A DNA stretch of 10,006 nucleotides, taken from the UHGV virus genome UHGV-2159551; one strand, 5' to 3'. Positions 1 to 93 of this stretch are shown piece by piece (within the stretch, counting starts at the first letter, position 1; each line of letters starts with the position of its first letter). The position numbers and the translations under genes are program-made. The stretch is from a virus. The notes below the pieces were generated by a model. That model saw only the letters and a list, made by a program, of their open reading frames with translations, was not told the DNA's origin and made no database searches.

Positions 1-93
1 ACGTAGAATCACCATTGATAGTAGCCAGTTGACGGCCAGTGTCAACGATTCCCGCCAGATTCTGCCATCCTTACCATTGGTGCGCATAATGTA
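1..93. repeat. Direct repeat copy 1 (93 bp), identical to 9503..9595; its 3' end is the XerC arm of a dif-like site
   Basis: Seen directly: 1..93 matches 9503..9595 base for base; the copies diverge after ...GCGCATAATGTA (cgactcg here, tattatg in copy 2). Confidence 0.95.

Follow-up and report, generated by a model that had tools for sequence, protein, structure and literature searches.

What lies upstream of a prophage whose sequence, at the very first base available, already shows the bases with which it will later end? The question is raised by a 10,006-nt stretch of viral DNA, UHGV virus genome UHGV-2159551 (hereafter the window), in which a repeat search over the whole length returned a single long direct repeat: positions 1–93 recur at 9503–9595 with 100% identity over 93 nt and a start-to-start spacing of 9,502 nt, where chance would yield ~5e-49 exact repeats of 93 nt per 10 kb. 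Each copy consists of 78 nt followed by GGTGCGCATAA, the XerC arm of a dif-like site, and TGTA. Beyond TGTA the copies part, the left one continuing with the phage sequence CGACTCGTTATGTTGAAA, which reads CGACTCG and then TTATGTTGAAA, and the right one with TATTATGTTAAAT, by which the canonical dif of E. coli (28 nt, 9581–9608) is completed. A preliminary description of this DNA had the coordinates of the identical copies right, as well as the separation of 78 nt lying beyond the recombination site, and saw in these 78 nt either a sign of a tandem prophage or neighbouring IMEX, or host flank captured by the phage.

Judged by its sequence, the element itself is a member of the CUS-1/YpfPhi family of filamentous phages, a placement that follows from the identity of its core (regulation, replication and assembly; roughly 7 kb) to the prophages of UTI89 (99.3% over 1317–9608) and of Y. 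pestis NCTC5923 (99.3–99.7% over the stretches available). UTI89 is an O18:K1:H7 strain, the clone from which CUS-1 was described. A megablast search with the whole window against 50,697 phage records matched only the IS end at 9896–10006 and gave no phage-level match at that sensitivity, so that family identity was set via the UTI89 and Y. pestis genomes. According to Pfam and the annotation of relatives, gene order is inovirus-like (Table 1), with a variable pair of ORFs next to attL and a divergent repressor at the place where a review of YpfPhi puts an RstR homologue (PMC4266046). Pfam and annotation assigned none of the ORFs in the window to an integrase or recombinase family; several small ORFs were without a family match.

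The position of the attL-adjacent cargo (179–1250) is described as variable within the family (PMC4266046), and other genes take its place in UTI89, Y. pestis and the second of two units found in GW-AmxH19, i.e. the module is swapped for unrelated genes among phages that are otherwise 99% identical. The N-terminus of the nuclease protein resembles PDC-S35, and no methyltransferase is evident with the DUF6953 and nuclease genes in 179–1250; the pair could be a defence-like cargo carried by a filamentous phage.

The unit in the window differs from those of MINF_1D by two 1-nt deletions (at ~1279 and ~3991), both of which are also deletions relative to N10, and by two substitutions. The deletion at ~3991 cuts an 83-aa membrane protein to 57 aa. 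Since the exact truncated product turned up in 52 index blocks, among them a metagenome scaffold with a tandem array, it represents a real allele of this lineage, whose phage is possibly defective.

Table 1. Features of the 10,006-nt window and the evidence behind their assignment
Feature	Coordinates	Strand	Evidence
Tail of upstream phage unit (last 78 nt, non-coding 3′ tail, clipped by window edge)	1..78	+	Identical to 9503–9580
Predicted attP(+) forked hairpin of the single-stranded genome	76..175	+	DNA fold
XerC-binding arm GGTGCGCATAA of inter-unit junction (attP1), from upstream phage unit	79..89	+	Junction polymorphisms elsewhere
attP1 central region, 11 nt (TGTACGACTCG); 90 is the first base of this prophage unit	90..100	+	
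One complete prophage unit, 9,502 nt, CUS-1/YpfPhi family	90..9591	+	
XerD-like arm of attP1 (TTATGTTGAAA; dif has TTATGTTAAAT)	101..111	+	Direct reading
attP2, second dif-like site, inverted (GGTTCGCACAA TGACG TTATGCTAAAG on the minus strand)	146..172	-	
DUF6953 protein, attL-adjacent cargo	179..445	-	Pfam (1.8e-28)
DpnII/MboI-type nuclease-domain protein, attL-adjacent cargo	456..1250	-	Pfam (6.9e-59); PADLOC Aga_Helical-REase 1.3e-34
HTH repressor, RstR position	1839..2285	-	Pfam HTH_3, Phage_CI_repr
Rolling-circle replication initiator, pII type	2457..3509	+	Pfam Phage_CRI 1.2e-73, G2P_X_C 3.6e-34
G5P ssDNA-binding protein	3521..3838	+	Pfam, relatives' annotation
Truncated membrane protein	3841..4014	+	Pfam, relatives' annotation
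Coat-like protein	4126..4359	+	Pfam, relatives' annotation
pIII-like protein	4574..6136	+	Pfam, relatives' annotation
DUF2523	6149..6436	+	Pfam, relatives' annotation
Zot	6440..7465	+	Pfam, relatives' annotation
Secretin	7465..8709	+	Pfam, relatives' annotation
Same 78-nt phage tail, right end of the 90–9591 unit	9503..9580	+	Repeat, relatives' junctions
Reconstituted chromosomal dif (phage XerC arm + host central region + host XerD arm)	9581..9608	+	T28R match, polymorphisms
Host DNA right of dif, ydeT side	9609..9905	+	E. coli chromosome matches; flank as in VR50, N10, T28R
IS3-family element end (IS629/IS1203-like), inserted in right flank	9906..10006	+	

Whether the 78 nt belong to phage or host can be read from genomes that carry the same locus with and without the prophage. 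In the prophage-free E. coli T28R, the order is hipB-hipA, dif, ydeT side, and its dif is an exact 28-nt match to 9581–9608 at the same locus. The 78 nt to the left of this dif agree with the 78-mer of the window at only 26/78 ungapped positions, meaning that the flanks are unrelated. Likewise, the right end of the window (9503–10006) has matches in thousands of E. coli chromosomes that typically begin no earlier than query base 76–80 (~9578), the start of dif. In VR50, a single lysogen, the hipA-side flank as in T28R directly precedes GGTGCGCATAATGTA-CGACTCG at the left junction, and the 78-mer occurs only at the right end of the phage, directly before dif. UTI89 has the same layout, and in MINF_1D and N10, too, the outer left junction has a hipA-side flank of the T28R type. 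Moreover, the prophage of Y. pestis also finishes with this 78-mer, as do those of genomes in which the genes on either side are quite different. Because neither the dif flank of T28R nor the left VR50 junction contains the 78-mer, 9503–9580 is phage DNA, namely the 3′ tail of the phage genome, and 1–111 is therefore a phage-to-phage attP junction.

The comparison with the dif flank of a prophage-free relative, which had been proposed as a check, thus disposes of one of the two original suggestions. Had the phage acquired 78 nt of the dif flank of its host in an earlier imprecise excision, 1–78 would be true host DNA; apart from the repeat itself, nothing speaks for this, and the unrelated T28R flank, the host-type outer left junctions of the lysogens, the matches of most E. 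coli chromosomes from ~9578 onwards and the recurrence of the same tail in differently flanked hosts together refute it, leaving a probability close to nil.

What remains of the 93-nt repeat is that it is real, but its left end is not biological. In relatives, identity continues upstream through the whole phage genome, and the repeat begins at base 1 because position 1 already falls within the upstream element. In biological terms, it is the entire 9,502-nt phage (90–9591) that is repeated. Only the right boundary of the repeat (93/9595), where phage sequence and host dif part, is biological; the number 78 is biologically meaningless and only records where the window starts. A window start at the end of a de Bruijn-graph contig (k about 93) was also considered and is unneeded as an explanation because any window starting inside an upstream unit gives a repeat from base 1.

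Natural polymorphisms at the junctions of related prophages allow the exchange to be mapped. In L006/L007, AGTGCGCATAA is present at the outer left junction and GGTGCGCATAA at both of the others, middle and right; in L015, the left junction has GGAGCGCATAA (host arm; GGAGCG) as opposed to GGTACG in the middle. These differences show the left XerC arm to be derived from the host, and the middle and right arms from the phage. In L008/L009, TGTG-CGACTCG is found at the left and middle junctions and TGTA-TATTATG at the right one, indicating that the central region is inherited together with the left end of the phage. Taken together, the polymorphisms bound the crossover to an interval of 10 nt that begins at arm position 5, ends at central position 3 and includes the canonical XerC cleavage point.

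Downstream of attP1 lies a second, inverted dif-like site, attP2, and the region spanning both is predicted to fold as single-stranded DNA into a forked hairpin of -31.2 kcal/mol (z = -7.1; 0/200 shuffles fold as well). In the predicted structure, the XerC arm (79–89/162–172) and the XerD arm (101–111/146–156) form stems beneath an apical stem-loop (112–145), and the centre is bulged and asymmetric, with 11 nt (90–100) facing 5 nt (157–161). A comparison of 18 variants drawn from several genera showed a variable loop and almost no change in the stems, so that the fold is without support from covariation. Two inverted dif-like sites within such a modelled fork are the design of a CTX-type attP(+).

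Parts of this region are also found elsewhere. The hairpin with attP2 (window 102–173) is ~93% identical to ~470 places on large E. coli plasmids (e.g. L005 2501–2571), where it adjoins the 3′ end of a gene of the STM4504/CBY_0614 family; unit 2 of GW-AmxH19 has the allele found on the plasmids (loop CCCTCC, TTATGCGAACC). The plasmid copy may have been left behind by a phage att region, or it may be an Xer-type site belonging to the plasmid. The plasmid-side STM4504-family gene and the cargo gene of UTI89 are unrelated (BLASTP E = 0.8). In Kosakonia oryziphila (L026, ~2145–2204), only attP1 and the first hairpin arm are present before the sequences diverge, apparently what is left of a left junction at a dif-like site, lacking any adjoining phage.

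The other suggestion, a tandem prophage or neighbouring IMEX, is supported by relatives in which the upstream side can be seen. MINF_1D and N10 each show the order hipA, unit, unit, dif, with two 9,504-nt units that have 0 differences between them and a middle junction corresponding to window 1–111; the same junction lies between units in Y. pestis NCTC5923. The closest relative is a metagenome scaffold of 101 kb (L016/L017), which is 99.99% identical over window 1–9909 with one mismatch and shares the right flank as well as the two private 1-nt deletions of the window. Upstream of the equivalent of base 1, L017 continues with ...gattcgtttggagaaacggata, the rest of a complete first unit and then hipA. 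The same ...gattcgtttggagaaacggata precedes the junction in MINF_1D, so that in both relatives the upstream phage copy expected for a tandem is in place. The IS end, which interrupts the host flank of the window 300 nt to the right of dif, is absent there in the near-identical L017.

None of the complete RefSeq E. coli genomes matches the whole window. MINF_1D matches 1–9608 and differs in the right flank; VR50 has the right flank of the window, a host-type left junction and an internal partial duplication. This duplication, seen in VR50 (L003 15004–28399) and in L010, runs from the repressor to the middle of the pIII-like gene without forming a clean att-to-att tandem, and is either a rearrangement or an assembly artefact.

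Such arrays are found repeatedly. Exact copies of the pIII-like protein were found in 1,177 index blocks; of seven other genomes encoding it, four contain two full units, and in a fifth a partial unit accompanies a full one. A junction of phage end to phage start is present in ~63 of 5,426 complete E. coli genomes, counted as a place covering at least 80% of window 1–178, which only this junction can achieve; the phage end adjoins dif in ~83 of the 5,426. Both counts are approximate, and arrays may have been collapsed in older assemblies. Units need not be alike: in GW-AmxH19 (L034 1846–20720), the nuclease cargo belongs to a first unit of 9,504 nt, behind which lies a second of 9,356 nt with two other small ORFs, their cores being 99.7% identical (26 positions differ).

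The distribution of the phage extends beyond these genomes. In L006/L007, L011/L012, L013 and L015, which are probably from other enterobacterial genera, an identical 520-aa pIII-like protein and a near-identical phage are found at dif amid quite different flanking genes; such close identity of protein and phage points to very recent spread across hosts. One further match, L030 (JARKOR010000214.1), stems from a metagenome-assembled genome labelled Candidatus Nanosynbacter and joins the hipA-side flank of E. coli to the attL of this phage; it is most likely a mis-binned enterobacterial contig.

Taken together, the window very probably starts in the last 89 bases of an upstream prophage of the CUS-1/YpfPhi type, arranged head-to-tail with the 90–9591 unit and integrated with it at dif. 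The phage-to-phage nature of the left end is firm in that 1–111 is the junction between units and constitutes the intact attP1 of the phage; that the molecule sequenced here carries an array would follow from its relatives, the upstream element being visible over 89 nt only.

Two other explanations have to be weighed against this reading. One is that upstream lies another IMEX of this family, be it a unit with other cargo or a truncated, RS1-like satellite, which shares only the 3′ tail and attP with the unit in the window. Precedents exist in the GW-AmxH19 array, where cargo differs per unit between cores that are 99.7% identical, and in the partial units of VR50 and GCA_043943795, and 89 nt is all that the window shows of the neighbour. 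Yet these 89 nt equal the tail of the window's own unit exactly, including the first 23 nt, which are polymorphic in the family (the N10/Y. pestis allele differs at seven positions). The identity of the two tail copies across this stretch favours the same phage upstream, and L017 contains two units of the same kind, the window-aligned parts of which differ at one base. A heterologous neighbour is accordingly unlikely.

The other possibility is that the chromosome holds a single integrated copy and that the junction stems from a circular replicative form, the attP join of which was threaded on by the assembler. YpfPhi is known both integrated and extrachromosomally (PMC4266046), and several assemblies would fit such a form: the short-read contigs L020 and L025 stop at the equivalent of 9595, L019 is 9,525 nt long with a terminal overlap of 23 nt, giving one 9,502-nt unit, and in 259 index blocks the longest contig with the pIII-like protein is only 5–10 kb. 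The IMG/VR contig L004, in which the junction is present without a terminal overlap, is uninformative as evidence on circular forms. However, complete assemblies of close relatives resolve arrays of two units between hipA and dif, and the frameshifted gene of the 83-aa membrane protein may lower active phage production in this lineage. We therefore regard an assembled replicative form as quite improbable, and 1–111 would stay a phage-to-phage junction either way.

How a head-to-tail array of this kind might arise can be outlined by analogy; Xer dependence, integration as a single strand and rolling-circle production are taken from work on CTXphi and YpfPhi. In single-stranded DNA, 1–111 together with 112–175 would refold into the forked attP(+) hairpin, which, following the CTX-type mechanism, would pair with dif as part of the (+)ssDNA genome. 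XerC would then exchange one strand at the boundary of XerC arm and central region, and replication would complete integration. The products would be a left junction combining the host arm with the phage centre (11-nt spacer) and a right junction combining the phage arm with the host centre, i.e. a perfect dif, which could accept a further genome and so give rise to an array. In the double-stranded DNA of the prophage the hairpin would be lost, and with it the ability of the element to excise through Xer. New genomes would instead be generated by rolling-circle replication, initiated in one unit and terminated in the following one, across the junction. [quoted passage not shown]

YpfPhi (CUS-2) of Y. 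pestis is one of the nearest known systems. It has the same attP, the same 78-nt tail and the same form of tandem junction, its core is 99.3–99.7% identical over the available stretches, and its published traits—integration at dif, restoration of dif on the 3′ side, inverted XerC/XerD sites and tandems of two to four copies—match the window (PMC4266046). The two differ in cargo (YPO2271/2272 in YpfPhi versus DUF6953 and the DpnII/MboI-type nuclease in the window), in reported unit length (8.7 versus 9.5 kb) and in that the host of the window is E. coli. CUS-1 of UTI89 (E. coli O18:K1:H7) occupies the same dif locus, flanked by hipA and ydeT-side DNA, and several of its proteins have the same accessions. 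The UTI89 prophage has a different attL-adjacent gene (369 aa) and was assembled as a single copy, and the window lineage, unlike it, has the frameshifted 83-aa membrane protein gene.

CTXphi of Vibrio cholerae shares the design of inverted dif-like sites with a predicted ssDNA fold, the one-sided restoration of dif and the lack of an integrase (PMC4246890). Tandem arrays and a pII-type Rep, which would serve rolling-circle production across units, are shared as well (PMC4246890). Beyond generic inovirus genes, the two phages have no detectable sequence relation; the window phage is without toxin genes and has its own secretin, and its att sites, compared with those of CTXphi, are separated only by a 34-nt stem-loop. 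IMEXs of the VGJphi and TLCphi types likewise use XerCD to integrate at dif, but they do so reversibly via a single double-stranded attP of 28–29 bp (PMC4246890), a substrate to which the paired inverted site and the 11-nt attP1 spacer of the window element are a misfit.

As tandem YpfPhi arrays at dif have already been published, the arrangement is an ordinary one for this phage family and leaves current understanding unchanged. The gain is one of annotation: the boundaries of the prophage are 90–9591, positions 1–89 belong to another unit and the 93-base repeat should not be taken for an att site or for captured host DNA. Array status matters since, if CTXphi is a guide, an array would be able to yield phage and a lone integrated copy would not. 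Because arrays collapse in short-read assemblies, copy number and the type of lysogen are often mis-scored. Links of the family to fitness or virulence have been reported for E. coli K1 and for Y. pestis (PMC4266046). There is, finally, a speculative and rather doubtful prospect that heterologous arrays such as that of GW-AmxH19, through rolling-circle read-through at 1–111, provide a route of cargo exchange among cores that are ~99% identical, the hairpin fragment being present on ~470 plasmids as well. If this were true, the exchanged cargo would here be a defence-like nuclease with a DUF6953 protein, carried by phages that span E. coli, Yersinia and other Enterobacterales.
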